Positions 3,705-54,239 of a stretch of 64,000 nt of DNA are shown here, piece after piece. The translations under genes and the position numbers were made by a program. Origin of the DNA: Sphagnum compactum (Eukaryota); NCBI GenBank assembly GCA_965153455.1, contig OZ234493.1, positions 8,112,213 to 8,176,212 of the forward strand. The letters run 5' to 3'. The notes beneath the pieces were generated by a model. It saw nothing but the letters and a program-made list of their open reading frames with translations, did no database searches and was not told the origin of the DNA. Position 1 is the first letter of the stretch. Each line of letters begins with the position of its first letter.

Positions 3705-3845
3705 GGAGAGAGAGAGAGAGAGAGAGAGATCCCTAAACCCTAAAAAAAAAAACCCAGAAAAATTTTCTGCCCGTTACTGCCCGTGATCTAAATGACAAGT
3801 CGAATGACACATGGCTGTCACGTGTCGTCCACATCACGTGACATG
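3705..3845 (-). promoter_or_regulatory. Promoter/5'UTR-like motifs: (GA)n, telo-box AAACCCTA, two G-box/ABRE CACGTG
   Basis: (GA)n ~3705-3729; ccctaaaccctaaa at 3731; CACGTG at 3819-3824 (ACGTGTC) and 3835-3840. The G-boxes may instead belong to the Helitron 5' end. Confidence 0.3.
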
Positions 3846-6800
3846 GGGCTTTGAAATCTAAGACGTTGTATATGTGCATTTATGTATGTATACAAATACA
3901 TATATTATTGTGTGATTTATTTGTACATGTTTGTGTGTATGTGCATGTATGTGTTTATGCATGTGTAATAATGTTAAGGTTATTATGTTTTCAACGTTTT
4001 TTTTCAGGTATTTGTAAACTCAAAGTAAGTGCGACTTTTTATTTTCAAAATTATACTACAACTTTTATAATATTAATCTTGGTATCGAAAAACACATTAT
4101 ATGTTTTTTGGTCTATGAATTTTTGTCTATCAAAAGAGAATTTTTGTACTTATTGCAAATGTTTTTTAAAAATTCTGACCTAGAGTTTTTTTCTTGTGAC
4201 TGAAAATATTTTAAAGCTAATATAAATTTGTCGTTTTGAATTAATGTTTTGAATTAAAATTTATCTTCTAAATTTAAATTTGGGTTAAACAATAAAAATG
4301 AATAATATAATCATTTTTTCAATCGCAATGTCAATGATTAACTTTTATGATATGAGGTTTTTGAGAGTTAATTTAATAGTTCTTTGTGTTAGAGTTATGT
4401 AAATAAAAACTTGCTTATAATTTTAAGCATTTAGTTAATCACAAAAAATAAAAATGTATAAACAATTATAAAAAGAAATTAATAATTCAAACCCTGAAAA
4501 CCCCTCAATTCATCATTGGCCAAAAACATTCCCATTATTCCTTGCAAAATTCAAAAATCCAATATCCAAAATCCAAAATCCAAAAATTCCAAAAATCCAA
4601 AATTCATATATCCAATATATCAAAGTCCAAAATCTAGTTCCAAAATTTTAATATAACACCTAAGATGTGTAAAACTAAGATAAATTATAGGGTTGCTAAG
4701 AGCATGCCAAAAACAAAGTTTTTTGAAAAGCTCAAACCTTCAATAGCAATTAGGACTTGCTCAACATCATCATCATCATGTACAGATTTGGCAATCCATC
4801 CCCGGTATTAGAGTAAGAGCTCAATCATAACCCCCATCCTAAGTATTATTTCTTGCGATAAGACTAGAATTGCCAAGAAGGAACTGATTATTTGTAGCCT
4901 CTAGGCACTCATAATGCGATTCATTGTGCAATGCTAACCTCTAAGCTATACACAAAATGATGAAAATCAAACTATCAATCAAAGTCAAATCCTATGCATG
5001 GAAGCAAGTTCATTTTAATGTGAGGGATAGAGAATTACACCTTTGATAAAACATGTTGCAAAAAAATTCAGTTGTTATAATCAAGATAAGTGCCTCCCTA
5101 ATTGAGAATTGCATCACTTATAAGAAGGCCTACATTTTCCTCTCCAAACAACACCTTGCATGCCACAAATGTCCAATCCCTATTATGACAAAAAAAAATA
5201 GGAACAAAAAAACTAATGACCTTATCACTGGATAAATTCTGAAGCTTTAAACACACATTCCACAAAGTCAGGTGATTTCAAACTCATGAAGGGCATGGCA
5301 TTCCACAAAGCTATTTGGTGAAAACTTATCTTTGATGAAACTACAATATTTCAACCCCTTTATCCAAACCCAAAAATTTGGTTTCCCAATTTACCCACAT
5401 AAAGAGTCAATAAGTGTTTTTTCCATGAATGAATTCTACATAATCTCCATCAAAGGAAACTCTTTCACCCACCATAAGTCTCAAAGTTTTTGGTTTGACA
5501 AGGCTTTGAGGGGAGTTGCGTAGAACAACCGCTTGCCCCTGGCTAGGGTTGCAATAGTTGTAACCTTTGAAACTAGAGTTTCCCACCACTTGTAGGTGCA
5601 TAAACCACCAATGATGACCCCTACAGAAACCCATTAATTGTTATTTGTTGCCATCACCAGAAGAAAAAAAATGTCATACAAATCAAGGATGAAATCTTGT
5701 AATCATTTTCACAAGTGTAGGTTTATAACTAGTTTTTTGTTGGAAAAGGCTCAATTTTTAGCTGGTTGACTTGCAAGTCAATGATTGTCCAGATTAAAAC
5801 TTATTGCAATGACATTAAGGTTTAGGTCAAGAATGTTTTGAGGTTTAGGGATTGAAGAGGGTAGTTTTGCATTAGGTAGAGAGGAATTATGGTAGTTAGG
5901 GGATGGCATTATAAGGTTTTGTTCATGGAGAGGGATAAGAAAAGGAAAAAAAATTCATTTGAAACTTATTAAGTGGGTAGTCGTATAATTCGACAATATT
6001 TTTTGTTGTAATAGTGTGTCCATCATTTGCTTGAACTCGGTTGCAAAGTTGTTTTAGTCATTCCCTCTTATCCTTGTTAATTGAATTTTGTTCTACAAGC
6101 AATTTGTTTCTAATTTCATTTTGCTCAACCAATAACTTGTCTCTGTTAATTGATGTTGTAACTTCAACAAAATCCACATCACTAGCAACGGATTCATAGC
6201 TAGCAGAATCATTAGCTCCTAATCTTCACTGAAATTATTGTCCTCCTCCTCTTCCTCCTCCTTGTTATCTAAATAATCATCTATGTATCGTTAAAAAAAG
6301 AAATTATAGAAGAAATTCCTCCAAAAATTTGGACTACTTGGGGCTCCTCCATCACCCTCCACTCCAGGAAACAAATAAAAAAGGACTTCATCTTATTCTA
6401 TTTTTCGAATTTTTTTTCTTGTTAGTAGCAAAAGATTCTGCAATCAAATTCCCCACAGCTTGCAATAGTAGTTTGGGAAAGATAATGGAATCCCTACAAC
6501 AACAATTAGTAATTGAGAATAAAAGAAAGTGGAATCTCTACAACAACAACTATAGTTGCCATAACTTCTTTTCTCGAATCCTAAACCTCATTGTCCCCCA
6601 AACCTAAACCTCATTGTCCAATTCCACTATTTTATTCACATTCTAAACACCAAAATATTTTTTTTGATTTAAACAATCTCGACATTTTTATCAAATAAAC
6701 TTGTTCACCTAATGTGAAACCGGTTCTAATAAGGTAAAAGTTACAAAACTTGGATGCGATGCGATAATCCATGTCCCTTTGGGGGCAAGGCCCAATCAAA

Positions 6801-36395: not shown

Positions 36396-39300
36396 TCAAG
36401 AATCATCATCTTGGTCCCAGGGCTGCTGCTGGTCATACCACCATGTCTTCACAGTGCAGTCATGGGAACAGCTGTTCACAGAATTTCCAGTTAACATTCT
36501 TAGAACTCATAATCATAAGATACCCATATGATGTGAAAATTAGCCAGAAATAAGATTTTCCTTGTACATGAACTTTTCAGATGTGTAGATTGTCAGAGAG
36601 CATCTAATCCCAATTTTCCCAAATTGCCAGAGGTAGAACAAATTAATTGTGATCCGTAACCGTAGACACAGGAGAAACAAAGAAGAGAGAACTAGAAAAA
36701 AGTACCTTACAAGAAGGCTCTGGTGGGGATTCCAAATAGCACGATAAGCAATGTCACTGTGGCTATCATTACTATGGGCACCCAAACGCTGCAGCACCTC
36801 CCCTGTTGCTGCATCCCAAATGTAGATCAAGCCATCCTGCAGCCACACAAGTTGACAAGTCTCAGAAAGAACAAGAGGATGTCAACTACTACCACAGATG
36901 TATTGGAACTACAAACAGATTGAAGTTCATGTCTCATATGCTACATACTGAGAGATTCATCCCAAGTTCTGCTGCAATATCCCAATTCACTTACTACCAA
37001 AAATACACAACTTCACATTACTCCTGACCGCCCAATCATGGGATTTCTTTTTTCATGGAGCAATGACAACATCAATGATGAAAACCTCAATGAGCAGTAC
37101 TACCTCAGATCCACCAACTACAAGAGAATCATCAGGTCCAAAGCTTGCTCTGACAAAGTTTTTACTGGTGTTTTGATGACCCTTGAATCTCCTTATTGGG
37201 CGTGCCTGCATCAGCACAACATTCATTTGACATTGAAAAAGTGCAATACATGGAAGAAGCAACAAGCTCCAATAACTATGCTGCAAAATCTCAACAAGAC
37301 AAAGCACTAGTAGCCACCAGAATTCCTAATCGTTCCAAACTGTAATACTAAAGAGCTGTTGTAAAAAGTAAAGCACTGACCAATCGCACATCCCAGAGTC
37401 GATTGGAGTTGTCCTTAGACCCACTTAACAAAAGACTACCAGCCTTGTTCATCTCCACGGACGTTACCTCTGCACACAAGTTACCATGTAAGAGAGCATG
37501 ACAATTGACAGCCCCATGGCTCATACCAGCTTCACCAGCAATGTTCACAATGACAGATTGTGCATGCAAAGCCAAATCATAGTTATATTTGGCTTTGCTG
37601 TTCCAAGAGACATGACAGCTGATTTGGGTTGCGATAACAATTCTACTCCTTAAATCTGCTGTCAACACCACCAAGAATAGTATCCATAGAAACTCATGTA
37701 TTGATATCCATCACTGGGTGTCAGCTGAAAGTTGAAGAAAATGACAGCACCTCCAAAATGAGAGCTGTAGGTCTTCACACAAACCCCACTGACCAAGTCC
37801 CAGAACTTGATTGTGTAATCCTTTGACCTGCCATTTACAACAGTTATGAGAACTGATCTTCGGAAGAAATTTGTAATCCTTGCAAATACCAAACCCTGCT
37901 TCCTTGGAGTACTCTCCCCCCTAAGTTGAGCCTTCCTTGCAAAAGAGATGATATCTGACTACATCACTAATCTTCTTTACTCAGTAGGGCCACAGGGTCA
38001 ACAAATCATGATTTCACTCCTCCCTCCTAAACCTATTGAGAGACCAGGTTGAGCAATCACGCACCCACTAATGACAAGGTTGCCCAAAGGATTGAAAATG
38101 ACACGTGAGACAGCAGAGTTATGACCGATGAATGTGCGTAACAGTGCACCTGTGCGTGCATCCCAGAGTCTTACAGTTTTATCATATCCCCCTGTCACCA
38201 CATAATTCTGCATCATCCTTAGAGTACTTAGTTTCTGTTCACACATCAATTCCAGCATTCCTGAAAGAGATTGCATCACAACCTAGGGATACAAATACAA
38301 CACTGAACTTCCTTATAGGAGAATGCACTATCCTCAAATGCATGCATCAAGCACAAGAAAGCAGGGGAGTGAGTGTACATTTGATTGGTGGAATTTGACA
38401 CTATATACATCGCCCTCATGGCCAGAAAGTGTTGCTGAACATGCTGACTTTGTTGTTCCCCGCAAGTTCCAAAACTGTTAAGGGTGACCATGATTTGCAA
38501 ATTAGCGACATGGATAGTTCACATTTGCTTCAAAACTTATAAGAATCCTGAAAACATAACCAGTGCTTTGCACAATAATGAATTTATTCTACAAAAACCA
38601 TGAATTGGATAGTCAACAAGTCCAACCAGGTTATATAACTCTCCAGAGGAAAAAATCCCTCAGTTTCCTCACATTCATCTGGTGTGATTATCTATACCTT
38701 GACAGTTGAATCCCCAGAAGCACTGGCCACAACATCCCCACTGCTGCTGGAAGTGACATCCCATATTCGGGAAGTATGGCCTCCACCACTTCCCAGGTCT
38801 CCATCTCCTAGCACTCGCACACATTGCCCGTCCTCAACATCCCAGACTCGCAACATGTTGTCACTGCAGCACATCCATTTCCAAGGGAGAGAAAAATCCT
38901 CTTAGCAATTGTAGTTCCCAATCAACCATAATACATGCAACACGTTAGGCTTTCTCCATCTTATGCTGGCATCCTGTCATGCTGATGGTGTGACAGAAAT
39001 TCCATGGAAGACCTCTCTCAATTTCCATAAGGAGAGTGTATATGAATATGATTACACCATTCTTGAAAGGAAACCAAGATAAAAGTGACATACACCTAGG
39101 TATGCATGGTAGTGTTTGTTTAGCATATGGGTGGGCATTGTGGCTTATGTACCTGGAACCAGAAACAAGGAGAGTGCCCTCTTCTCCAACAAAGTCTACA
39201 CACCTGCCCACACAAAATCACTTCAGAAACATGAAGGTGCATCCACCCCAAAATGATGATCATGGAAATAATTTAGAAAATGAGCATCTCCAAAGGGACA

Positions 39301-41919
39301 CTGTGGAGAGGGAAAAGCTGGAAACAAGCACAAGGAAAAAAAATCATACTGTCCACCTAGAAAACTAGTGGGAGGGCAGCATAACTGAGAGAAGCAGTAA
39401 GGACATACTTCACATTGCTGCGATGGCCTCGAAAGGTGGTCTTGTGCGCATTGGGAAGAACAAAGCATGAGTAGTCCTCCAGCAATCTGTGCACACGGCA
39501 GCCAGCACCAGTGCACCCTTATGAATGCTGCGCTCACCCCCCTCATTTCCCCTGCCCCTGCCAAAGACCCCATTCTCATCAACATCCCTGGGGGTTCTGG
39601 GAAGGCAGTGGATGATGCACCATGCAAGAAAACCTCAGAAAAGGATCCCACAAATGACGAAAGAAGAGACATGTCAATATGCTCATACAACACTTCCTCT
39701 GAATATTGGGCGTAACATACCCTTGCACTTGTAGTCCTCCTCTTGGAAACTCCTACAGTGGTAAACATTTCATCCCATAACACTCTCATGCAGTCAATGA
39801 GAAACAAGAACCAGGAATAAAGAGTTTCACCCACAGGGCATAAGAACATGTACCCTTAATCCCAGATCCTCCTAGCACTTAGAAGTACACAGCTGGAGGT
39901 ACAGAGATGCAAGAAGGAAAGAGAATTTGCAAGCAGACGACAGAATTGGCAGAAAAAGAGTACAGGAAACTTACGTGGGAATGCTGGGGACAACCTTAGG
40001 ATGATATCTACTGAACTCAATTTGGTAGCGAACAGCCTGCTTCAACAGATGCAAAAGACGCTGTGGCTGCACCTCCTGCCTTGTAACTGTTCCCATGCAA
40101 ACAAACACAGATAATGCTTGGCTTTTGCTACCAAGAACCCTAAACCCTTCCAGAACTACTCAGAACATTTTGGCAGATTTCTAGATAGCCAAGAGAGACC
40201 ATGAAGCTACTCGATTTGTCCACATATGAGAAGCTAGTGTGGCAGACATTACTCAACCATTTCTCAATCTGTTTTTAACATCAGTTTATGAGTCTGAAAT
40301 CTACCTGCAAGGTCATTATTCTCTATCTCCATCATCGATGAGAACTGCTCCACAAGCTTCTCCCTGTGCACCCCCCAAATTGCATTCATTTTCTGAAATT
40401 GAGAACAGTCACAATATCTCCCTATGGATTATCTCCTCCAGTCTGCATCAGATGCTGGGAGAGCTACAGAACCTAACAAATAGGCAGTACTCAATTGCAA
40501 TGACCTTTCAGGTGTTCCTCATAAGTACCTGGAACTAGCTACGCCTTCCCAATTTTTGAAAAAGGGGGCATCCTGTATACACTTGCACGTCAAGAGGTAG
40601 CACAAATCCTTGAACTCATTGTGTAGGCTCCCCATTTGTTCCAATGGCTTCAACCTTTTGGTGAGCAGCACAAATGCCTGGATGAAATCCAAGGAGCAGC
40701 AGTAAACTCAAACCATCAGTTAGGAAACACTCAACCCATCAGGCATGTTTGCAGCATGCCCCCAAAGATGTCTGCTCTGGAATGCAGAGGGGAGGAAAAG
40801 AACCTTCTGGTGCTCATGTTGCTCAATAAGCTCCAGGTATTGCTGCTTATAAACTGTGTAGAGAAAATGCTTGTGATCCTTCAATGGCGTTTTCTGCACC
40901 AGCTTCTCTGTGGTAGCCCAATCTCCATCTGTACACCATTGTCAATGGGGGGAACTCAATTCTCAAGGAAAGGTTATTAAGGCAGATAAGAGACAAACAG
41001 AAGAGGAAAAAAAAAGATGCTCTTACCAAGAATTGCAGTCTTGATGCCCTTAAAGTGGGAACGGTTTTTGAGATGTTCTGTGAAGCGCACATTGGCTTCA
41101 TCCTGGATTGTCATAATTGATGCAACATAGCCTTCATCTTGCAAATACTGCACTATCATACGGACAACATCCTGCAAACCAGTGCCCACAGACCCAAATT
41201 CAAAAACCTAGTATACAAACAAACCCTGTTCCTGCTCATCACAGCACAGAACCCCAGTTCAGGGTAGAAAAATAAAAACATAGCCTCCATCTTGCAGATA
41301 CCGGATTATCATGCGAATCACATCCTGCAAACTAGCACTCAAAGACCCAATTTCAAAAGCCCTAGTATACAACCAAAAGCACAGAACCCCAGCTCAGGAA
41401 AAAAAGAAAAGAAAAATAGATAGCCTTCATAGCTTTCATCTTGCAGATAGCACATGATCATGCAAATCACATCATGTAAACTAGTGCCTCAAAGACCCAA
41501 ATTCGAAACCTAATAAAGAAACAAACCCAGATCCTGCTCTTCACAGCACAGAAAACCTAATTCAGAAAGGAAAATTCAGCACGAACCCTAATTACTTATC
41601 TGGTTTAAGATGCACAATTCAGATCCTGCTCTCTCACACAACGAATCTAGATGATTTCTCTGATACAAAACTGCTGGAAATCAGAAGAAGAAGAAAAACC
41701 GGAAGCGAGATTCATCTGGTGGGTGCAGAATTAGGGTTAGGGTTTGAGAACCTCTTTGATCTTGGGATTCTCATGGTCGAAGATGGCATCATCGTTGCCG
41801 ATGGTTCTACGAGGCGGTCCGGCATAGACAGCGCCACGAGCACGCTCCGTGAGCTCACCAGGACCACTGCCGCTGCTGCCGCCACCACCACCACCAGAGC
41901 CTCCGCCGCCGCCATTCAT
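36396..41919 (-). CDS. LisH-CTLH(-CRA) plus WD40-repeat protein (TOPLESS/SMU1/WDR26/WDR47-type architecture)
   Basis: About 15 exons. Exon 1 41919-41752 (MNGGGGG...RRTIGNDDAIFDHENPKIKE). LisH DVVRMIVQYLQDEGYVASIMTIQDEANV (from 41171). CTLH-like FLYTVYKQQYLELIE...FKDLCYLLT; QRLLHLLKQAVRYQ. WD40 repeats such as GHTSRIWDV..ASASGDSTVK, VTGGYDKTVRLWD, LSGSKDNSNRLWD. Last exon SCSHDCTVKTWWYD...DDDS, stop at 36396-36398. Confidence 0.88.
41126..41570 (-). repeat. Tandem triplication (~150 bp unit) of the intron 1 3' end plus the LisH exon start
   Basis: catagcc(t/c)tcatcttgca.ata...atcat.c.....acatc.tg.aaac.ag...c.ca.agacccaa recurs at ~41126, ~41279 and ~41428. Confidence 0.85.
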
Positions 41920-42568
41920 GTCGTGGCTGCAATGTGCGATCCACCACAACCCACCACGGCAACAAAACAACGAACAAACCACAAGAGCTTGAAGATCTCC
42001 TGTTCTTAATGGGATCTTCGTTGCCAATAAAACACCAACAAAATGAACTCTTGTAAGGTAAATGGCATTTTAAAGGTAACCTTCACCTTCTTGAGTGATG
42101 CTTTTTGCTTTAGTGGTCACTTATTTGGTAGAGCCAGCCTACATGCTAAATTTGCACTCTGAAGTCTTCTAATATTATTGGAATCACCCTTCTTTTTTTT
42201 AATGCAAAAAATAGAAAAATGAAAATGAGATTATTCTGTAAGATATTCCCCTTTGATTTGGGGAAACAAGTCAACAGATTTCCCCCCAATAAAATTGAAA
42301 TTTTTTCATCACATTATTATTATTATTATTATTGTGATTTTGGTTTGGTAGCTCAATTTTGTTCCCATTTCTTGAATGTTTAGAGCATCTCCACCTGTTC
42401 TCAGTATGTGACCCTGCAAAATTATTTTTCACATCCAAGTTTAGTTATACACTTTTTTGGAACCCCCACCTGTAAAACTGAAACTGGTACAGCAAATAGG
42501 TGCGGGACTACCAGTAGCAAACCACCTGGACCAATCATTATGATGGGCGAATCAGGAACACCCAGCAG

Positions 42569-42857
42569 CAGCGTTTTTTTCTTTGGCGAAATTTCGTCAA
42601 AATGAGAAAAATAAAAATTTTAAACGACTATTTTGTTGCAGATTCCTTGAATTGTTTTTTTAAATCGTAAAAAATGTAGAGGTTTTGAGCTGGTTTCGCC
42701 AGATTTACAAGCCCTCCTCCTGTGGGTCGTAAAATAAAAGCAGGAATACAAAAAAATTCTACTGCTTTGCATGTCCTGTTCTCATTTAATGTTAAATCTT
42801 TCTTGGGATGCTAGCCAATGGTGCTGCTACACGAGAGAATTGAAAAAAAAATCACTG
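42569..42857. mobile_element. Small non-autonomous element (hAT-like MITE) nested in the Tourist-like MITE
   Basis: Ends CAGCGTTTTTTT and AAAAAAAATCACTG; degenerate 8-bp flanks cccagcag/ctcaacac; absent from the intact MITE copy. Related sequence at ~52140-52250 and ~56900-57140. Confidence 0.55.
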
Positions 42858-43148
42858 CTCAACACCAGTCAGATCCTATTTATTACACTCGTTTCTGTAG
42901 GTGCACAGAGTTGCTGAGCCTTTTACCAGGGCCAGAGTGAATTAACAGCCACCAATGCACCAGTTGGCCGTTCTGTCCACTGGATGGGTTGCGTTTTTTC
43001 ATTCGGCGCCGGATGGGGCTCATCACAGTCGATTTCTTTTTGCTGCTGACCACTGTACTTTTCTTTTTTTTTTCTTGCTCGTTTTTCCCTGGACCTGACC
43101 TCACACATAGCTACCCTGCTCACTTTTCTACCCTGTTCACTTTTCTAC

Positions 43149-43290
43149 CTAGCTACTGTACTCACCACCTACCCTACTAACCTGGCTACTGTACTCACCA
43201 CCTACCCTACTAACCTGGCTACTGTACTCATCACCTACCCTACTAACCTAGCTACTGTACTTACCACCTACCCTACTAACCTAGCTACCC
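43149..43290 (+). repeat. 33-bp tandem repeat, about 4.3 copies
   Basis: ct(a/g)gctactgtactcaccacctaccctactaac starts at 43149, 43182, 43215, 43248 and 43281; another copy near 43515-43590. Confidence 0.9.
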
Positions 43291-43321
43291 TATTAATTAC
43301 ATACCCTACCCTAAAAACCTT

Positions 43322-46300
43322 ACCCTAAATGCAATACCTGCATTTTGGGCCATTTCGAAAGTACACATGTGGGGTTCAAGCTTTCTTTATACAAAGATCC
43401 TACCCTAAATGCAATACCTGCATTTTGGGCCATTTCGAAAGTACGCATGTGGGCTTTTAGCATATTTATATGAAGATCATACCCTAAATGCAATACTTGC
43501 ATTTTGGGTCACATCACTAACCAAGCTACTATACTAACCACCTACCCTACTAACCTAGCTACTCTATTAATTACATACCCTACTAACTTAATCATTAGGT
43601 TTAGGGTTGAGACACATAAATTAATTGATAAGTTTTTCATAAATGTATAATAATTAATTTAAAGTAAGCTAAATTTGGGGGGAAAATTTTAGGGTTTACA
43701 CACATGTGAAGTAATACAATTGCATTTTATACCTTCTTCAAAAAGAATGGAAAAATTAGGTTGAAAAATCACACAAAGGTAAAAGACATATCTTCTTTTT
43801 TGGTTTTGTACGAAATTTATTTGATTATTTCTAAAGATTAACATATTTTATTTCAGTTAATAAATATTTATAATTAAAAACCTTTGAATCTTGGTTTCTA
43901 AATTTTTTCCTATGTTCTTTTAAATTTGGTTATTTTGCATTATATGATTTGTATAGTTCATATAGTTTTTTGGGTTTAGGGCATATATCATTAATTCTTC
44001 TTTTTGTTAGGGTTTGTATAGTTAGGGTTTATATGAAGATCCCACCCTAAATGCAATACCTGCATTTTGGGGCACACAAAAAATACACATGTGGGGTTTA
44101 AGCATCTTTATACGAAGATCCTACCCTAAATGCAATACCTGCAATTTGGGCCACTCCGAAAGGACGCATATAGGGTTTAAGCTTCTTTATATGAAGATCC
44201 TACCCTAAATGCAATACCTACATTTTGGGGCACACAAAAATAATTAATTAATTTCAAATTAATATGTTAATAAAGGTGTGTATAGAGGTTAGCGTTATTG
44301 ATTAGGAGTTCCATGATTCTTACTTCGTTTCATGAATTTGAAAAGAGGTTATATTGTTTATGGATCAAATAATACGATGACAATTGTGATCAAACTTATC
44401 TTGGTGTAGGAATTTTTCATGAAAAAGCTGAACTTACAATCTATAACATGGAATAATTATCTTAAATAGTGATTTCAATAACTTATTAAAACAAAAATAT
44501 ACTTCAGTTAATTAATCAAATATCAAATTAATCAATCTGATTTTTGATAATTATTCATCTAAATTATTTGATAATAAATTAATTATCAGAAATATTTTAT
44601 ATTAAATTGGGGGGAAATTTTTGGGTTTAGATATATGTGACACAATACAATCTCGTTCTATATTTTCTTCAAAGAGATTGAGAAAATGAGGTTGGAGTTA
44701 TCACACAAATGTAATTAACAAAGTTTATGTGAAAACCCAACCCTGAATGCGATACAAAGTTTGTTGAGATCAAAAATAAACCAGCAACTATTATGAGACC
44801 TATATGCGAGTATTACAAGAGATGCCAAAAAAAACCAGCAGCTATTATGGGAACTATATGCGGGTATTGCAACGAATGTTATAAAAACCCAACGAATACC
44901 ATGGATCGATATGCGGGTATTGCAACGAATGAAGAATGTCAACAACTATTCAGTTGGTAAAAGTAAGTACGGGTGTAGGTTTTGCAACGAAACCCCAAAA
45001 TTCTAGTTGGTAAAGGTAAGTATAAGTCTGAAGTTGAAATGAAAAAACAAACCTAAATGTAATACCCACGTTTGAAAAAACCCCATCTAAATGGTTTGGA
45101 TACCCTTAAGTGAAGACCTAGCCCTAAACACAATATGCATATGCAAAGTCACTTTGAAATAACCCAACCCTAAATGCAATACCTGCAATTTGGGTCACTC
45201 CTAAAGGACGCATGTAAGGTTTAAGCTTTCTTTATACGAAGATCTTACCCTAAATGCAATACCTGCATTTTGGGTCACGTCGAAAGTACGCATGTGGGAT
45301 TTAGGCTTATCTATTATTTATTTAATTATATGACAAATTTTATTGATAATTCATTAATTATCATAAATATTTTATATTAAATTGGGGGGGAAATTTTAGG
45401 GTTTAGACATATGTGAAACAATACAATTGCATTCTATATCTTCCTGAAAGAGATTGGGAAAATTAGGTTGGAGTTATCACACAAAGGTAAAAAACAAACC
45501 TTATGTGAAAACCCAACCTTAAATGCAATACAAAGTTTGTGAAGATCAAAAAATAAAAAGTTCAAGCTTAAATATTTTTCAAAGATGTTCATATTTTTTT
45601 TCCCCTTTTAAAGTTGTATATTCATACTAAAAACATAAATATAAAGTCTTTAATTTAATGAGATTTTAAATTGTGTTAAAAAAAAATCAAAACACATAAT
45701 AGTGGTTTAAATATTGGTCCAAATATATTGTTATTTATAAAACCTAATACATAAATAATGATATTATGGAATTATACTGTTGATCCATTTTCAATACATA
45801 TAATATTTTAGGGGTTTAGGGTTTAGGGTTGGGTTTTCACAGGTTAAGGTTGGGTAAACCCTAAAACCCTAAACCCTACAAATATTAATAGTAAATAAAA
45901 TAAATCTACAGTGCATTATAGAGGGTTTAGGTTTAAGTATAGGGTTTAGATTTAGGGTTTAAGGTTAAGGTTTAGGTTTAAATTTAGGGTTTAGGTTTAA
46001 GTTTAGGGTTTAGGGTTAGATTTAGGGTTTAGGGGTTTTGGGTATAAGTTAGGGTTTAGATTTAGGGTTTAAGGTTAAGGTTTAGGTTTAAGTTTAGGGT
46101 TTAGGTTTAGATTTAGGGTTTAGGTTTAAGGTTTAGGGTTTAGGTTTAGATTTAGGGTTTAGGTTTAAGGTTTAGGGTTTAAGTTAGGGTTTAGATTTAG
46201 GGTTTAAGGTTTAGGGTTTAGGTTCAGGTTTTGGGTTTAGGGTTTAGGTTTAGGGTTTAGGTTTAGGATACTGATAATGATGCTGCAAAAGCTGCTGTTG

Positions 46301-47250
46301 TGGCTACAAAGAAAAGTGATTGGTCTTAAGTGCGCACCTACCGGCTAAGTACGCACACTCCTCCCAAGTTCAAGTTGCATACTTAGGCGGGAGGCTATTG
46401 TACGCATGTGGGTTTAAGCATCTTTATACGAAAATCCTACCCTAAATGCAATACCTGCACTTTGGGTCACACAAAAAATACGCATGTGGGGTTTAAGCCT
46501 TTTTTAAATGAAGATCTTACCCTAAATGCAATACCTGCATTTAGGGTCACTCTAAAATAACTAGTTAATTTCAAAATCATATGCTAACAAAGGTGTGTAT
46601 GGAGGTTGGGGTTGTTGATTGGGAATCCATGATTGAAATTTAGAGTTTGGGAAACCCTAAATTAATTAACAGTTTTTTTACAAATTAATAGTAAATGAAA
46701 TAAATCTATGGTGCATTATAAGGGGAATTTTATATGCAAAAAAATGCAATACATATTTGCAAGATCATACTGAAATAATACATAGGTGATTGGAGGAAAG
46801 CATATGTGAAAACCCTAAACCCTAAATGCAATACTCGCATGTAATGTCATTTCAAAAATGGTCAGGGTACCAAAATTATGTCTTTTTATATACCTAAATT
46901 AAATATTATTCTAAATTAATTTTATGACAAAATGTAAGTTTTACAATGAATGAAAAAACCAGCAACTATTATGGGACCTATATGCGGGTATTGCAAGAGA
47001 ACCCAAAAAAATCAGTCGCTATTTTGGAGACTATATGCGAGTATTGCAACGAATGAAGAATGTCAACGATTATTTGTGCCCTTTATGTGGGTATTGCAAG
47101 GAATGTAAAATGCCAACGACTATTATGGGACTCATATGAGGGTATTGCAATGAATGAAAAAGGCCATTGCCTATTATGGGACTTATATGCGGGTATTGCA
47201 TTTAATGCAAAATGTATGTGGCTATTTTTTGAGGTTATATGCAGGTATTG
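43322..47250. repeat. ~80-bp repeat family (accctaaatgcaatacctgcattttggg...) and an inverted ~60-bp family (tatgcgggtattgca...) inside the MULE
   Basis: 80-bp units at ~43322, 43402, 43481, 44045, 44123, 44202, 45168, 45247, 46439, 46519. Opposite-orientation GGTATTGCA units at ~44800-44930 and ~46980-47250. Confidence 0.85.
45805..46266 (+). repeat. Interstitial degenerate plant telomeric repeat array (TTTAGGG with TTTAGG/TTTAGA/TTTAAG variants)
   Basis: Continuous tract of ~345 bp at 45922-46266, plus a short head-to-head cluster at 45805-45878. Confidence 0.9.
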
Positions 47251-47874
47251 CATATTAGAAAATGGTCTTATGGAGTTCATAATAGAAAATGATGTGGGTA
47301 TTATATGTTTAAAATGTGTGGATTATTTTAAAAGTCTTCAAGTGATGTGAGTTCTATTAACTTAGATGTAAGTATTGTATAATGTTTATTTTGATCTTTG
47401 ATTTGATTCTTACATCTCAAGTACAAACAAAATTATGACAAAGAAGACATATAGGATTAACCAAATACACATCAAACAAGTGTGAGTAGCCGATATTATT
47501 ATATTAATAAAAGATGTACAAAAATGGGTGCATGGAAAATTACTAGAGAACCCAATGAAGAAAAAACATTGGATCACTATAACATATCAAAGGATCAAAG
47601 TTCAAAATTGGGTAGTCCAAAAAAGAAAAGGGCTACAAAACCTTACTAATTATATAAAATGAAACCCTAACCCATATCAGTATCTACAATCCCATGTTTA
47701 GCTCGATATGCAGCTGCTGCATTTGCAACCTTTGCTGCATGATGAGCAGTGTAAAGATGGCGGCGTTGCATCTCAATCTGAACTGCATTTGCAACAAACT
47801 GGGCCTTTGTTTGGTCCTGAACCCTACAAACACCCAAAAATCACCAAATTAAACCGTAACACACCTTGGATCAA

Positions 47875-50643
47875 AACATATCCATCTGTGTGTAATTCTC
47901 ATGGTACCATGAAAGAGCTAATCGGCCTCCTATAACATCACACCAATCAAAACATCCACAACCTGTGAGCAAAAAGGTTCATTTCAATCACAACACTTAA
48001 CGTGTCTTATAGCATATGGCTGTCATCATAACAGAATAGTTAACCTCCATATGCAGGAGATAGAACACCCATCGTGCCAGTTCTCATTTGTTACATCCTG
48101 GAGCTAGCCATCCAGTAATTGAGACCTGACAATTATTATGAAACAGAACCCCACCCTCAAATATTCTTCCCCTAGAACCTGCACCAGAGGTTTCACTCAT
48201 TAAACCAAATCAGAGACCAAGTCATTGCATTTAACAAGGCACCTAAATTACCTAGATTCACATCACCAAAGATGATTTCTGCTATTGCTTGACCACCAGC
48301 CTGTCCAGGATAGCCTGCCCATAGAATACCTCCAACTCGCTCATCGTCATTTGCAAATGAGACATCAACAGGCCCACCTGACAATATTACGAGCACAACT
48401 GGGCGCCCGTTAACAGCATCTAGTACAGTTGAAATTAATTCCTCCTGCTTGCCTGGAAGACGTAGACTTTCACGGTCCCGTCCTTCTGATTCTTGGGCCT
48501 GGCTTAATCCAACAAATAAGACAACTGCATTTGCTTCTGAGGCAGCAGTCACTACAGATGGAAAGAGATTTCCATCTCTGCAAGTTGCATCGGCACATCC
48601 AGGTGCGTAAATCACACTTTGCCCATTGCCCCCAAAAAGTGCTTTTATTCCATCCAAAGGACTTGTAAATTTACAGGGAATGCCTGCAGAAACCCAAAGA
48701 ATTTTTTTATGACAAGTCTCTTTCTAATTCTCACTCTTCTGATAAGACTAGGCTTTGGCAAAACCTTGGAAGCAAACAGATTTTTCCTTATGTGCCTAAG
48801 GGGACCAATCTTACAAACCTTAGGCATGTTGGGGTTAAACTCACAACTTTGCCATGACAATTAGTTTGACAACATGTGACATTTCAAAAATACTGACTAA
48901 GCACAGAAAGCTTCAGAGTTGGTAGGCCAGAATAGTTGCACTTGTACTGGCAACCCACATTACTGTAAGATGTCAAGAGGAATCACTTTGAGGAATCAAT
49001 AGGATGGCCCAATTATACCTTCATAATTACCAAGCATCTCTTGAGTTGCATTCCCATGAGGGCCAATCACAGCCACCTTGAACTTTTTTGTTTTGTTCCA
49101 TGGAAGTGCACTTCTATCATTTTTCAACAGAACAATGCTTTGTTGAGCCTCAAGAGCAAGATTTTGGTGACCAGTGGTGCAAACATCAAATGGTCCCAGT
49201 GAGCCGAACGGAAGAGTTTCAGGATCTCCGTCAAACATCCCCAATCGCATCCGCACAGAGAACAGGTTGCGCAGGTGCATGTTTATAAGTTCCTCCCAAA
49301 TTAATCCCTTGTCTAGTGCAGCCTGAGCATGATATAAAACTGTCGTTCCACAATTAAGATCCATACCTGAAAAATTCATCTCAAGTTTCAGTTCATTTTC
49401 TGGGGCATGTCTCTCATGGGTGACCTACCTTTCAGAGTTCCCACAAATCAAAGTGATTAAAGATCACAACAAAAGTATCAAATTGTCCAACACCAAGAGG
49501 AGCACCTGCCAACAAAACATAAGAGACTGCGTCCTTTGGAGTAGGTGCATAATGGATGTATTCATGTATTAGTGCAACCGCATCACAATCTGACACAATG
49601 TACCTACAGCCAACTACAAGTTTCTGTCAATCAAAACCCTTTTGCAATTGCCCTGCAACAAAAAAACTGATATAGAATCTGTTGCCAAATGGCATCTTAA
49701 GATTTCATAACAGCTCATCTTCAACTTCAAGCACAGAACCTAAAACACAAACAATTGAAGGTCGTGACATACCCATTAAAGCCCCAAATATTGCGGACAG
49801 TGAGAGTGAGAAGCTCATAGTGACTGCACATAGGAATTCCATTGAGACGATTGTAGGAGCACATTAGGCTACTGGACTGCCCTTCTTTCACACAGCTCTT
49901 GAAAGGTGGGTTATAAGTGTCCTCCAAGTCTTGCAGACTCACCTGACCACATTCTTGAGATCATTAAGCTACCATCCGTAGGAAGGTCTGAGTTCCAATC
50001 AAAAGAAGGTTTCAATCAGGATTTGATTCTGGAAATGTACTTTTGAACCCATAGGTTCTTAAATCAGAATTCTACAATTCTTCCTGATTCTTGACTTTCA
50101 AAATTCAAACTGCATTTGGACATCTCCCTCACTTGGTGAATATGCTCATCTAAAACAAACAATGCTTTACATTTGTCTACCCATCCAGGTAAGCAAATAT
50201 AAGAAAAGGACAAGTCAGTCCATAGAAAGACACAAACCAGCAGTAAAATGAACTGGGCTTGAGACAAAATCACAGCTGAAAAGGAGCAGGTAAAGCATTG
50301 AACTTTAGAGGAAAGCAAAATGCTGAGGAGCAGAGGGATATGGAACTTACTTTCGCATCAAAATAGTTGCGATCATAGCCTTTCCAGCTGTCCAAGTCAT
50401 GAGCTGTAAAATGCTTACAACACGCAGAAACCTTTAACCGCTTTGGCCCCCCAGCAGTGTGGATCTGGGAACCATCATAATGTCCCTCTTGCAGACCCTT
50501 TACGAAGTAGACTGCATATGTACTCGTAAGCTTTGGATCCTCCCCTGGTGTTTCCTGTGTCCTTCCCCATCGAGGATCTCTGACTATGTTTATGTTTGGT
50601 GACCAATAGCTCAATCCTGACCTTCCTTGATTATACATGGCAC
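47875..50643 (-). pseudogene. 5'- and 3'-truncated glycoside hydrolase family 3 beta-D-xylosidase/arabinofuranosidase (BXL-like) gene fragment with introns
   Basis: Exons ~50641-50351 ([36 protein letters not shown]...[14 protein letters not shown]), 49942-49773 (DLEDTYNPPFKSCV...MCSYNRLNGIP), ~49603-49506 (YIVSDCDAV), ~49366-49019 (MDLNCG...SIVLLKN...GNYE), ~48684-48253 (GIPCKF...ESEGRDRESL...WAGYPGQAGGQAIAEIIFG), ~47930-47875 (GGRLALSWYHENY). No signal peptide/N-terminus and no C-terminal Fn3-like part. Confidence 0.88.
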
Positions 50644-51274
50644 CGCGATGGTGCTCCCGTTCTCGCTGTGGTGCTCCCGCTGTGGTGCTCTGGCGATGGC
50701 GATTGGAGGTAAGACGTTGGAGGTAGGTAGGAGGGGGGAGGTAGGAGGGGGTAGGTAGGAGGTAGGAGGGGGGAGGAAGGTAGGTAGGGGAGAAATGTTT
50801 TGGGGCAGAGTAGAGGTGGGAGAAAAAAAAAATATTTGGGCAGTCCGGATGTGGTTTTGGTTCATCCCCAAAACGGGTTGAACGGGCTCATCCTCAACTG
50901 GTGCATTGGTGGCTGCTAATTCACTCAAGCCATTTACCAGCAACGGCAAACTGTGCAATTACGCTGAGCCAAAACCATTTTCTGGAACCAAACAGGAAGA
51001 TTTTCTTCATCTAATTTTACAGTGCAGGATCACATACTCATCAAAGCTGGAGATTCTCCTAGTATGTGACCCTGCACTGGAAATCTTAGATGAGATTCAT
51101 TAGTCGAATCAAGTCAATCCAGGGGAAACCCTGAAAACTCCCTCCCCCGGCTTTCAAAGCCCTTGAGCAATGAGGACCACTGCAACAGTCTCTGAAACAC
51201 AGTCAAATAGTATTTATTGACTGTTCCCTGTTTCTAATTGGGTAGATAGTTTGATTGGTCCAAGTGGGTTGGTA

Positions 51275-51735
51275 CAGTAAACTCTCTCTAATCTAATACT
51301 GTGTAAACTAATATTCTCTCTAAACTAATATGCGGGCATAGGCCCGTGGCGGGCCTCATACTTAATTTAATAATTCTCCATAAATTGATATTCAATATTT
51401 TTTTCCGATCTCATAGCATTTTACAAACTAATACATCATACATATGGCACCAAAAAAGCGATGAAATCAAAGAAAACACATTCTGCTAAGATTTCTACCA
51501 CTCATGTCATATGATTTTCTACGTGCTTCTTTGATCTTCCATCAAGCTCCACAAGGTTCTGTTATTTTCCCTAATGATCCATGACCTTCTACTAACCTCC
51601 ATGACCTTCCATGCTGCTCTGACAGGTTCCGGAATGATTTTTGTTATCCCCATATAATTTGTGTAAACTAATATCCTCCATAAACTAATATCTTCCGACC
51701 GGTCCCAAAGATATTAGTTTAGAGAGAGTTTACTC
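51275..51735. mobile_element. Tc1/mariner (pogo/Stowaway-like) MITE with TA target duplication
   Basis: TA|CAGTAAACTCTCTCTAATCTAATA ... TATTAGTTTAGAGAGAGTTTACTC|TA, with internal AAACTAATAT repeats. Absent at the paralogous site (~57380). Confidence 0.85.
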
Positions 51736-53884
51736 TATTGAGTAGTAATCTCCCACCTACTTACTTGCAGTCCCAGTTTCATATGTGTGGGTTGGAAACC
51801 AGTTAGTAACGAAAACTTGGATGTGAGAAATATTTTAGCGTACTGACCGTTGGTGAAGATACTCTTATAGGCAGGTTCCTAAAACTTAACATGTCCCCAT
51901 TTAAATGTGAGATCTTTGTTGGGATACTAGCAAATGACACCATATCAAAAAAGGAAGAAAAAAAAACACATTACATGAAATTAGTGGTTTTTTTGTGAGA
52001 GCTTTTGCCAAAATGTGACAAATGAATTGGGGCTGCGATTCTTTCAAAGGCTATTTATTATTTTTGAAATTTTTGAAAAACAATTCACCAACAAACCAAG
52101 GGTTTTGTTGTTGGGTTCACTGGATTTAGATCGCCAAACAGCTGTAGGATTTTATTTTATTATTTATTATCCTACCTGTTCTATAGCCATTTAATGCTAA
52201 ATCCTTCTTTGGATGCTAGTCAATGACGCAACACCCAGAATTTGAAAAATAAAACAATAACCCCGCTTGGAATGGTTTTGTTTTTCATAATGTTCAAAAA
52301 AAAAATTTCAAGAATTTTTTTTTTGTAGCCAAACTGTTGATCTTCCATTGGAAGGTTAGAAAACTAAATATGTGAATCTGCAAACTTTTACTTTTTCTTT
52401 CACTTTAGGCAACTGAAAACCTCCAAAATCACTTTTTTAATTGTTTATTTCACTTTTTTGGCGAGAAATTTCATCAGTAGAAGAAATGCTCATTATTATT
52501 AACCAAACCTTGGACTCAGATTCTTGTTCTTAACTCACTCCATGTGACTTCCTTTCAAAAGGAAAACCAACTTTGTTCCAAACCATTTTGCAAAAGGACA
52601 AAAAGGAGTATTGAGAAATTAAAATAATTTATTTGGAACAAAAAAATTCCCAAAAATATGCCCATTGCGGGAATGATGTTGCTGAAAAAATGGGAGTTGA
52701 AACCTTTTTCCCCAAAATCAATTCAATTTTCAGGTTTTTAAACTTATAAAACCATAAATATATGAAGATCAATAAGAGTGCATTACAAACTTTTAGATCT
52801 ATATATTTCCCATACTTTTTTTAAAAAGGGAAAATGAGAGTTTTTTTTTTTTTGGTAATGAAGCAGAAGAACTCTTTTCAAGAACATGTTGCCTTTGGAA
52901 AAACAATTACATTCAACCCTTGATTTTACGATAGTACTTTGGCGGGTTCAGCACAAATTATATTACTTTTACAAGTGCTGAAATTTTCCCCCAAAAGAAA
53001 GAAAGCTTTTCTACTGAACAATTTTTTCATAAGGAAAATGAAGAATCCTTTGATGCCATTCAGGAATATTCGGTCTTTCGTAATGGAATCTTCAATTTTT
53101 GATTATTTAATTACTTAATTAATTCATTTTTTTTATTGACTAGTGTTTTTTTATTGGCAACAAAAGCTAGTAGTATCCATGGCTTTCTAAAATGGAAGGG
53201 AGTTGTTGGCATAGTCCAACAAGAAGTGCACTCGTCTAGCTTTCTATCTATCTATCTAGGTACACACACTTGCACATGGGACTAGTGATTGACCACCGCC
53301 CACTTCATTGCAAACACTTTAAAAGAAAGAAAACAAAAACCTTTCACGTTTTGTTGGCATGTATGATGGTGTCTCTAGCATGCAAAGCTTTTTTGTCCAT
53401 TTGTGTGATGAGTTCAGAATAGACTCATTCCAGTTCTTAAGAGAATCCATCATCTGTTCCTTCCTATGACCCATTTGTACTTTGTGCACTTATTTCCACC
53501 CACATTGGTGTTTTTTGGTATGCAGTTGAAATGGATGGCGAAAGCAAGCAAGCAAGCTGGGTCCAAATTACTTTCTTTTGGTTGGGTTTTTGGCTTTTGC
53601 ACAAGGACGGCTGAATCTTTGAGACTTGAGATCCATGGGGAGATTCATCAACTCATGAAGTACTTTGTACAATTCAGAGGGATCTTTCTTGGCGTCTCTT
53701 GAACCTCTTCCTTCCTCCCTTTTTAGTATCTATTTCAGTCTATCTTCAACTTTTTGCAACAACAGAAAAGTACAAGATACATGTTGTGCTAAGAGGAGCT
53801 CCACCCATTATTCCTCCTCCTATTTGAGCTTCTTTAAAATGTTTATCACATACAAGATGGTGTATAGTCATTTCCCAATCCACA

Positions 53885-54239
53885 CGGAATCTCCAGCGGT
53901 GCTCAGTAAGTGGATCCTGCACTCTAAAATTGGATGGAAAAAAAGTCAAAACAGGAAAATGGTTTTAGTTCAGTATGATTGCACAGCTTGCCGTGGCTGG
54001 TAAAAGTCGCAACAACCCTGTGCACATGCAGAAAAGTACATATGATTCGACTGCTGCTCAGTGTTTCTCATTGGCCCATCATAATGATTGGTCCAGGTGG
54101 TTTGCTATTAGTAATCCCCAATCTATTAGCTGTCCCAGGTTCAATTTGATAGGTGGGGTTGCAAAAACAGTAAACAACTCAACTTGGATATGAAAAATAT
54201 TTTTGCAGGTTCACATACTGAGCACCACTGGAGATTCTC
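53885..54239 (-). mobile_element. Intact Tourist/PIF-like MITE, same family as the split copy
   Basis: TIRs gaatctccagcggtgctcagta and tactgagcaccactggagattctc, followed by taa. Confidence 0.8.

Follow-up and report, generated by a model that had tools for sequence, protein, structure and literature searches.

Has a Mutator-like transposon of a peat moss taken up a piece of a host gene and carried it to a new site? The question is raised by a 64,000-nt stretch of DNA from Sphagnum compactum (contig OZ234493.1, positions 8,112,213 to 8,176,212; below, the window), in which a first-pass annotation had proposed an 8-kb Mutator-like element (MULE) enclosing a fragment of a GH3-type beta-xylosidase gene (BXL). 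According to our analysis, window 42930-50931 is very probably a Pack-MULE of a Sphagnum genome: a Mutator-like element that is non-autonomous and holds a captured piece of a host gene. The element is delimited by the following features, where MITE stands for miniature inverted-repeat transposable element.

42380 to 42929, no strand: left part of the interrupted MITE-like host repeat, with an extra ~320 bp (42572-42891), from the alignment to the intact copy
42921 to 42929, no strand: left 9-bp target-site duplication, TTTTACCAG, the same 9-mer that the uninterrupted paralogous repeat has once
42930 to 42966, plus strand: terminal inverted repeat, the "A" end of the family; similarity in family ends begins exactly at base 42930
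50895 to 50931, minus strand: terminal inverted repeat, the "B" end, a 37-nt inverted match to the A end
50932 to 50940, no strand: right copy of the target-site duplication, ATTTACCAG, with one mismatch to the left copy
50941 to 51075, no strand: right part of the interrupted host repeat, from the alignment to the intact copy
53887 to 54237, minus strand: uninterrupted paralogous copy of the host repeat, that is, the empty site, found by local alignment

The 8,002 bp at 42930-50931 are a single insertion with inverted ends of 37 nt each (42930-42966 and 50895-50931), which are complementary at 34 of 37 positions (92%) and lie 7,928 nt apart. The termini named in the first-pass annotation are thus present, and they are unique in the window: a 32-nt version of the end (with up to three mismatches) occurs in just two places in the 64 kb, both of them element ends, and none of 100 shuffles contained any match. 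The flanking duplication that it had described stands as regards the presence of the 9-mers, ttttaccag (42921-42929) and atttaccag (50932-50940), though their identity is 8/9, not 9/9. When the left flank (with one 9-mer) was joined to the right flank, the alignment to the reverse strand of 53887-54034 ran uninterrupted over the joint, bearing out the claim that the host repeat resumes after the right duplication. The intact copy, ~3 kb from the element, contains a lone TTTTACCAG (53997-54005, minus strand), the same as the element's left 9-mer. Without the element, the flanks form an unbroken host repeat in which the 9-mer occurs once; all 8,002 bp thus entered this short repeat as one insertion. 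This paralogous empty site, together with a backbone colinear with a complete relative (L075, below), upholds the proposal that the 8 kb moved in at once and speaks against independent insertions of the two ends, which had been named as a possible refutation.

We compared a 19-mer from the end with JGI (Joint Genome Institute) metagenome contigs, and at least 122 stretches (the L numbers below) matched. The rest of the end was present in at least 119 of these, where the similarity sets in at the base predicted to be the first of the element and the DNA outside is unrelated; L045, L072 and L093 were chance 19-mer matches, not family ends. There are A and B ends, which have 37 nt in common and then diverge at once, and the window holds one of each. 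Among the matches listed, 118 ends came with flanks (74 A-type and 44 B-type, at 115 distinct sites). The 37-mer of the window's A end recurs in ~40 of the at least 119 family ends by row count, and 11 of 70 sampled A ends are at least 97% like that of the window, which is a young, common subtype. In all three public DNA runs described below, the family backbone stands at hundreds to thousands of times the flank depth, which fits a very abundant family.

In the standard scheme, a MULE leaves a target-site duplication of 9-11 bp. L075, a complete element of 7,542 bp, is flanked by the exact duplication CTAATTTGT, and exact 9-mers also pair L016/L061 with L090 and L055 with L063, the latter insertions being split by contig ends. 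The exact 9-bp pairs, three insertions in all including L075, always join an A to a B end; by our estimate, ~0.03 such pairs are expected by chance. Two older complete elements, L008 and L076, have duplications matching at 8/9 and 7/9 positions. The duplicated 9-mers tend to have an AT-rich interior, with C/G outermost and G/C beside the element. A second refutation offered by the first-pass annotation, namely that copies of the ends elsewhere lack 9-bp duplications, thus does not apply. Pairs of two A ends with one-mismatch 9-mers (L002/L091 and L015/L020) were also seen and were taken as chance.

Some family ends stand in unusual arrangements. In L033 (end at ~147) and L070 (end at 5615), exactly 9 bp separate a family end from the end of an older, related element that lies head to head with it, which is what a new insertion into the old element's target duplication would leave. 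On the contig shared by L050 and L051, a B end (L050:845) and an A end (L050:8832) point in the same direction 8 kb apart, and, with an offset of one base, each outer flank in L050 is the reverse complement of the other. Such an arrangement points to an inversion or to aberrant transposition involving two ends.

What lies between the ends of the window element? Most of it is family backbone.

42930 to 47876, plus strand: non-coding A-side backbone, colinear with L075, L066, L016, L046 and others
50642 to 50931, minus strand: B-end backbone, matching family B ends up to ~50650 (L027, 84% over 282 nt)

The element is colinear with the family at 42930-47876 and ~50650-50931: from one end to the other with L075, a complete member, and in sections with L016, L046 and L066, each of which has one end; further copies are colinear as well. 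The A side contains 33-bp subterminal repeats (43147-43309) and arrays of ~80 bp and ~51 bp with the core TGCAATACC(T/C)GCAT, and the B side contains a GC-rich 14-bp repeat (50664-50690) and GGTAGG repeats (50725-50788). The sole long stretch unmatched in 121 family loci is 47877-50649, and it is here that the gene fragment lies.

47877 to 50641, minus strand: captured GH3/beta-xylosidase fragment, ~2.77 kb (Pfam, exon map), both breakpoints inside exons
50351 to 50641, minus strand: cargo exon 1, a truncated parental exon, with homology from the Ala codon at 50641-50639 and a Met at 50638; P0134 reads on upstream
49773 to 49942, minus strand: cargo exon 2 (exon map)
49506 to 49603, minus strand: cargo exon 3 (exon map)
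49019 to 49366, minus strand: cargo exon 4 (exon map)
48252 to 48683, minus strand: cargo exon 5 (exon map, Pfam)
47877 to 47929, minus strand: cargo exon 6, cut mid-exon after ...YTQMDM; P0123, P0127, P0129 and P0132 read on

The Pfam domains PF00933 and PF01915 (GH3 N- and C-terminal) and five GT-AG introns (408, 169, 139, 335 and 322 nt) confirm the six-exon internal GH3/BXL fragment with introns that had been read from the sequence. The spliced frame has 463 codons without a stop, and the G+C content of the cargo is 42%. Its best protein match is P0001, a gene model of Sphagnum magellanicum, with 97% identity (11 substitutions and one missing codon relative to residues 1-464), followed by metagenome open reading frames (ORFs) at ~80% and other Sphagnum species at ~59%; that the best matches are from Sphagnum agrees with the earlier guess of a bryophyte. 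Related proteins continue past both breakpoints: P0134, a metagenome ORF of the same gene, extends upstream of ...GRAMYNQG with a normal GH3 N-terminus, and P0123, P0127, P0129 and P0132 extend past ...QMDM with SNMQMRPDL.... Four query proteins (E≤1e-3) revealed no further GH3 exons in the 64-kb window, and so the missing 5' BXL exons, the third candidate refutation, do not lie collinearly outside the element. None of 121 other family loci contained the GH3 cargo. The other copies hold 1.3-3 kb of family-specific subterminal tandem repeats at the cargo's position, indicating that the cargo replaces element sequence, and the retention of five introns points to capture at the DNA level.

The 651-aa P0001 starts at a Met one codon inside the 5' breakpoint of the cargo, lacks ~130 N-terminal GH3 residues and has 187 C-terminal residues beyond the window cargo. 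Two readings fit: an incomplete model of the parent gene, or the longer cargo of a sister element, annotated as a gene. With the chimeric ORF spanning backbone and exon 1 as the query for other copies of the joint, no protein matched over more than 60% of the query at high identity, as would be expected if gene callers start at the Met. Gene models like this 651-aa Sphagnum "hypothetical protein" may be transposon cargo or truncated models, and in Sphagnum assemblies the family ends offer an easy probe with which such cases can be masked and counted.

To which superfamily does the family belong? The window element has no transposase, as the first-pass annotation had noted: none was found by Pfam in the tested ORFs, of which those of the A-side backbone had no Pfam match at all, and none by tblastn with two Mutator-type transposases, P0170 and P0171 (E≤1e-5), in the A-side backbone or elsewhere in the element. 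Autonomous MULEs encode a MURA-type DDE transposase (Pfam MULE, PF10551), and relatives of the window element provide the link. L066 and L030 begin with the family A end and backbone and have 5 kb in common at 85% identity, including ~3.9 kb that is missing from the window, between points matching window 44029 and ~44950; no inverted repeat bounds this segment. Its ORFs have MULE transposase motifs and a CxC...CxH (SWIM-like) motif, with E values of 2.2e-4 and 3.5e-4 for Pfam MULE and of 0.33 only for SWIM. A HMMER (phmmer) search with a 150-aa L030 ORF retrieved 600 proteins at E≤1e-3, 163 of them at E≤1e-10. When 16 long matches were examined in Pfam, five passed the MULE cut-off, seven showed MULE at E≤1e-3, and ten showed MULE or the related ZSWIM RNaseH-like family. 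In tblastn, P0171 (730 residues), one of the five that pass the cut-off, aligned with L066 over its residues 54-681 and with L030 over 67-615. It also matched L076, a complete 7,990-bp element, and L016, whose B end and the A end of L090 share an exact 9-bp duplication. A word-indexed protein search with a 258-aa L066 ORF against longer proteins gave no match. These alignments show that four relatives with the window's backbone (L066, L030, L016 and L076) carry a MULE-type DDE transposase, decayed in the copies checked, and that the family is a MULE family. The assignment to Mutator proposed earlier is therefore sustained by this transposase and by the exact 9-bp duplications in three relatives.

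Two candidates within family copies were rejected. The MULE domain in L075 (E 2.9e-22) is not the family transposase; it belongs to a 367-aa ORF in a different, nested element of 2.2 kb (L075:782-2997), which is bounded by 116-bp inverted ends of its own (93% alike; they start with GGGGGCTGATCC) and by a ~9-bp T-rich duplication. In BLASTP, this ORF had no significant similarity to the family ORFs (E 1.8 and 0.49), and the nested element represents a second, compact MULE family in Sphagnum. The hAT ORF in L047 (L047:4245-5678, minus strand), tried as a second cargo at the cargo position, likewise lies in a nested element: the 2.7-kb insert, located 3776-6481 inward from the A end, has a hAT dimerisation domain (E 6.7e-13) and splits the family backbone with an 8-bp overlap, a hAT hallmark.

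Where is the parent gene, and has the loaded element multiplied? We compared window 41500-52500 with four public runs at ≥90% likeness, three of DNA (X2, X11 and X12) and one of RNA (X22); by organism label, X2 and X22 were assigned to the window's organism, and X11 and X12 have two other labels. Contigs of X11 and X12 match the cargo, including its introns, at ~96-97% (3-4% differences) and at flank depth. The match ends exactly at 47876 and 50641, and the contigs extend beyond it by 96 and 292 nt on one side and by 594 and 186 nt on the other, suggesting that they derive from an ordinary single-depth GH3 gene in those organisms. In X2, the unitig depth was 33-37 in the unique flanks and 161-176 in the cargo, and one unitig (47846-48384, depth 176) joins 31 nt of backbone to the cargo.

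X22 is poly(A) RNA, of which ~12% of the run was read. Its reads over the cargo exons lie on one strand only, with first mates on the plus strand, which in most stranded libraries corresponds to minus-strand RNA; the RNA is thus in the cargo sense (minus strand) if the library is of the common stranded type. A bin wholly inside intron 1 had a coverage of 1.0, versus 16.6 and 18 beside it, indicating that the RNA is spliced. GH3 sequence of the cargo type is thus transcribed in sense and spliced, either from the element or from the parent gene. The window copy is not the main source, since the reads carry a base other than the window's at five sites (48254, 11/11; 48554, 11/11; 49189, 18/18; 49536, 22/22; 50504, 24/25), and expression of this copy is accordingly not supported. 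Beyond the 3' breakpoint, ~500 nt of backbone are still covered on the same strand at ~7, after which coverage is 0. This run-on hints at transcripts of loaded elements, and is a hint only, as the backbone is highly repeated.

A course of events compatible with these observations can be outlined. A transposase from an autonomous relative would act in trans, bind the shared ends and excise the element, which would then be pasted into a new site with a 9-bp staggered cut. The GH3 piece would have been copied in at the DNA level before the insertion at the window site, most likely by template switching in excision-gap repair, because the cargo stands in place of element sequence and is not an addition to it. 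Afterwards, the element with its cargo would have multiplied to roughly five copies in the window's organism.

Several points weigh against the Pack-MULE interpretation. The best sampled B ends are only 84.6-86% like the window's B end, with none of 36 above 90%, and the contrast with the A end (11/70 at ≥97%) counts in the same direction. The strong inverted repeat, at just 37 nt, is short for a MULE, whose inverted ends are typically 100 bp or more, although short-end MULE families exist. The one mismatch in the window duplication, taken alone, makes an 8-bp reading possible. The source of all family data is metagenome contigs, which probably represent several Sphagnum species and do not belong to the window's own genome. 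The family ORFs fall below the Pfam MULE cut-off (22 and 21.4 bits versus 27.6) because the domain is split between frames, and the MULE link therefore runs via homologues, 6 of 16 of which showed no family in Pfam; the only directly significant MULE domain among the loci, that of the nested element in L075, was not counted for the family. An autonomous MULE with the same ends, which the first-pass annotation had recommended seeking, was found in part: relatives with a transposase exist, and the two copies checked are decayed, with six (L030) and four (L066) in-frame stops in the transposase stretches, and no intact autonomous copy was seen among the sampled family loci. The same holds for the full-length parental BXL: an intron-matched gene is present in X11/X12 contigs, which together with the metagenome ORFs provide the full-gene evidence, and the parental locus of the window's own genome was not seen. 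Finally, the ~5 copies of the loaded element that we infer for the window's organism derive from unitig depth in one run.

Could the same structure have arisen otherwise? One alternative is that each end has its own history: two elements may have inserted around a resident GH3 pseudogene, or a single element may have been rearranged or recombined afterwards. In either case the 8 kb would never have moved together with the cargo as one unit. The combination of a young, abundant A end (11/70 at ≥97%) with a B end whose best counterpart reaches 86% fits such a chimeric origin, and odd arrangements do occur in the family (L050/L051, L033 and L070). However, an unbroken host repeat with the 9-mer once is obtained when the flanks are joined, the sequence between the ends follows the family backbone in its order (42930-47876 and 50650-50931), and the cargo-backbone joint stands at ~5x flank depth in X2, indicating that the loaded unit was copied. 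We consider this origin very unlikely.

The cargo joints bear on another alternative, that a different mobile element, such as a Helitron or a nested transposon that went unrecognised, brought the GH3 piece in, in which case the MULE itself did not capture it. Such an origin seems highly improbable to us, even though nested insertions are frequent in the family (the 2.2-kb MULE in L075 and the hAT in L047) and a Helitron-type PIF1 helicase sequence lies beside L044. The cargo replaces 1.3-3 kb of backbone rather than splitting it, its joints show no target duplication or backbone overlap, whereas the nested cases show overlaps of 8-11 bp, neither 47877 nor 50641 shows an inverted repeat or a Helitron-like end, and the homology to the GH3 gene starts and stops inside exons.

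The least credible alternative, already nearly refuted, is a non-autonomous element of another cut-and-paste superfamily, likeliest a hAT relative with an 8-bp duplication (TTTACCAG), one extra right-end base and a captured gene fragment, which the window 9-mers permit by differing at the first base (leaving a perfect 8-mer) and which the presence of hAT elements in these genomes (the nested hAT in L047) might favour, but which is contradicted by three family insertions with exact 9-bp duplications, neither longer nor shorter, by TTTTACCAG as the single copy in the empty site, by a family internal gene that is MULE-type, not hAT, and by the fact that the L047 hAT is a nested insert with its own 8-bp overlap.

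How does the element, read as a Pack-MULE, compare with known systems? Pack-MULEs are known from rice, maize and Arabidopsis and were reportedly named by Jiang and colleagues in 2004. Like those of flowering plants, the window element is non-autonomous, has a 9-bp duplication and G-starting inverted ends, contains an intron-bearing host gene fragment and no transposase between the ends, and lies near a gene 5' end (a WD40 gene ~0.9 kb away). It differs from them in its moss host, in a strong inverted repeat of 37 nt only, with ends that differ right behind it, in its mostly non-coding repeat backbone, and in a cargo consisting of one long fragment (2.77 kb, 42% G+C) instead of short GC-rich pieces. 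Pack-CACTA (Pack-TYPE) elements also move by cut and paste, are non-autonomous and contain pieces of chromosomal genes, but the ends of CACTA elements read CACTA and their duplications are 3 bp long; neither feature is found in the window element. Helitron gene capture, for example in maize, is similar in the DNA-level capture of exon-intron fragments and in the subsequent multiplication, but Helitrons have no inverted ends and no target duplication, whereas the window element has both.

Pack-MULEs are a main route of gene-fragment duplication and shuffling in plant genomes and have been described almost entirely from flowering plants. The moss case is documented by an empty site, at least 119 family ends, 9-bp duplications, transposase-bearing relatives, exon-internal breakpoints and a hint of post-capture spread. 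It extends the Pack-MULE mechanism to a bryophyte, a plant with a haploid dominant life stage, and leaves the understanding of how Pack-MULEs work unchanged.

The closest precedent is in the lycophyte Selaginella lepidophylla, where, according to passages of PMC6839031, 20 of 57 elements of one family have fragments, the mean length with cargo is 8.81 kb, and the acquisitions are recent, with 93-99% identity to the parent genes. That system resembles the window element in its non-seed plant host, large elements and high parent identity (for the window cargo, ~96-97% to the gene in two other organisms and 97% in protein), while the plant lineage is different and the element family unrelated. 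In size, the window element (8 kb) exceeds rice Pack-MULEs, which average ~2 kb by a figure quoted in the same text. As opposed to the 20/57 in Selaginella (PMC6839031), recognisable captured coding sequence was found in 0 of 25 Sphagnum family copies with an interior of ≥1.2 kb, in a Pfam search of ORFs ≥130 aa only. Because Pack-MULEs had already been reported outside seed plants, in this lycophyte (PMC6839031), the novelty is smaller than the first-pass annotation implied. We found no earlier description of a Pack-MULE in Sphagnum or another moss in the literature searched, and the main texts of a Pack-TYPE survey (PMC8903248) and a 2026 gene-capture review (PMC13317346) contain none of the moss or bryophyte terms looked for. 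The window element is a well-supported Pack-MULE from a lineage without an earlier description found.

A bolder proposal, which we advance tentatively and regard as rather unlikely, is that MULE gene capture is recent and ongoing in peat mosses. The GH3 piece would have been taken up in one Sphagnum lineage and spread to ~5 copies, and the loaded copies, not the parent gene alone, would be transcribed and spliced in sense with ~500 nt of read-through, giving a truncated GH3 protein under selection (463 open codons) or small RNAs on the cell-wall xylosidase gene. A recent capture in one lineage is suggested by the single-depth, gene-like contigs in two other organisms versus the joint at ~5x flank depth in the window's organism.

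One stretch inside the backbone is specific to this copy.

45701 to 46432, no strand: copy-specific stretch within the backbone, from comparison with family loci

It includes a degenerate plant-telomere-like array (45922-46267, 345 bp; 16 exact TTTAGGG in 45900-46270), which is absent from other family copies, and the pieces flanking the array (45810-45947, 138 nt, and 46261-46399, 139 nt) have no family match. Like the gene fragment, it may have been acquired.

The host repeat measures 351 bp, and its 35-nt inverted ends match at 32/35 positions. Tourist-like MITEs, among which the first-pass annotation had placed this repeat, are marked by a 3-bp TWA duplication and PIF/Harbinger-type ends; the trinucleotides flanking the host repeat are TTA/CTA at the interrupted copy, without a clear TWA duplication, and are ambiguous at the intact copy. 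The ~320 bp at 42572-42891 are present in the interrupted repeat and absent from the intact copy (53887-54237), and contigs of three runs skip 305-321 bp there (42544>42866, 42561>42867), indicating that this segment is a further indel or small insertion inside the host-repeat family. The junction 42929>50941, which an orthologous empty site in other accessions would contain, was absent among the joints listed for public-run contigs; one X11 contig (record 8) ends near 50938 with ~9% divergence and is probably a paralogous repeat.

MULEs favour positions near gene 5' ends. The WD40 gene beside the element (window ~36540-42070, minus strand) has its 5' end ~0.9 kb from the A end and a weak LisH-like match near the N-terminus, below Pfam's cut-off, and poly(A) RNA reads in 41500-42600 lie on the strand of this gene.

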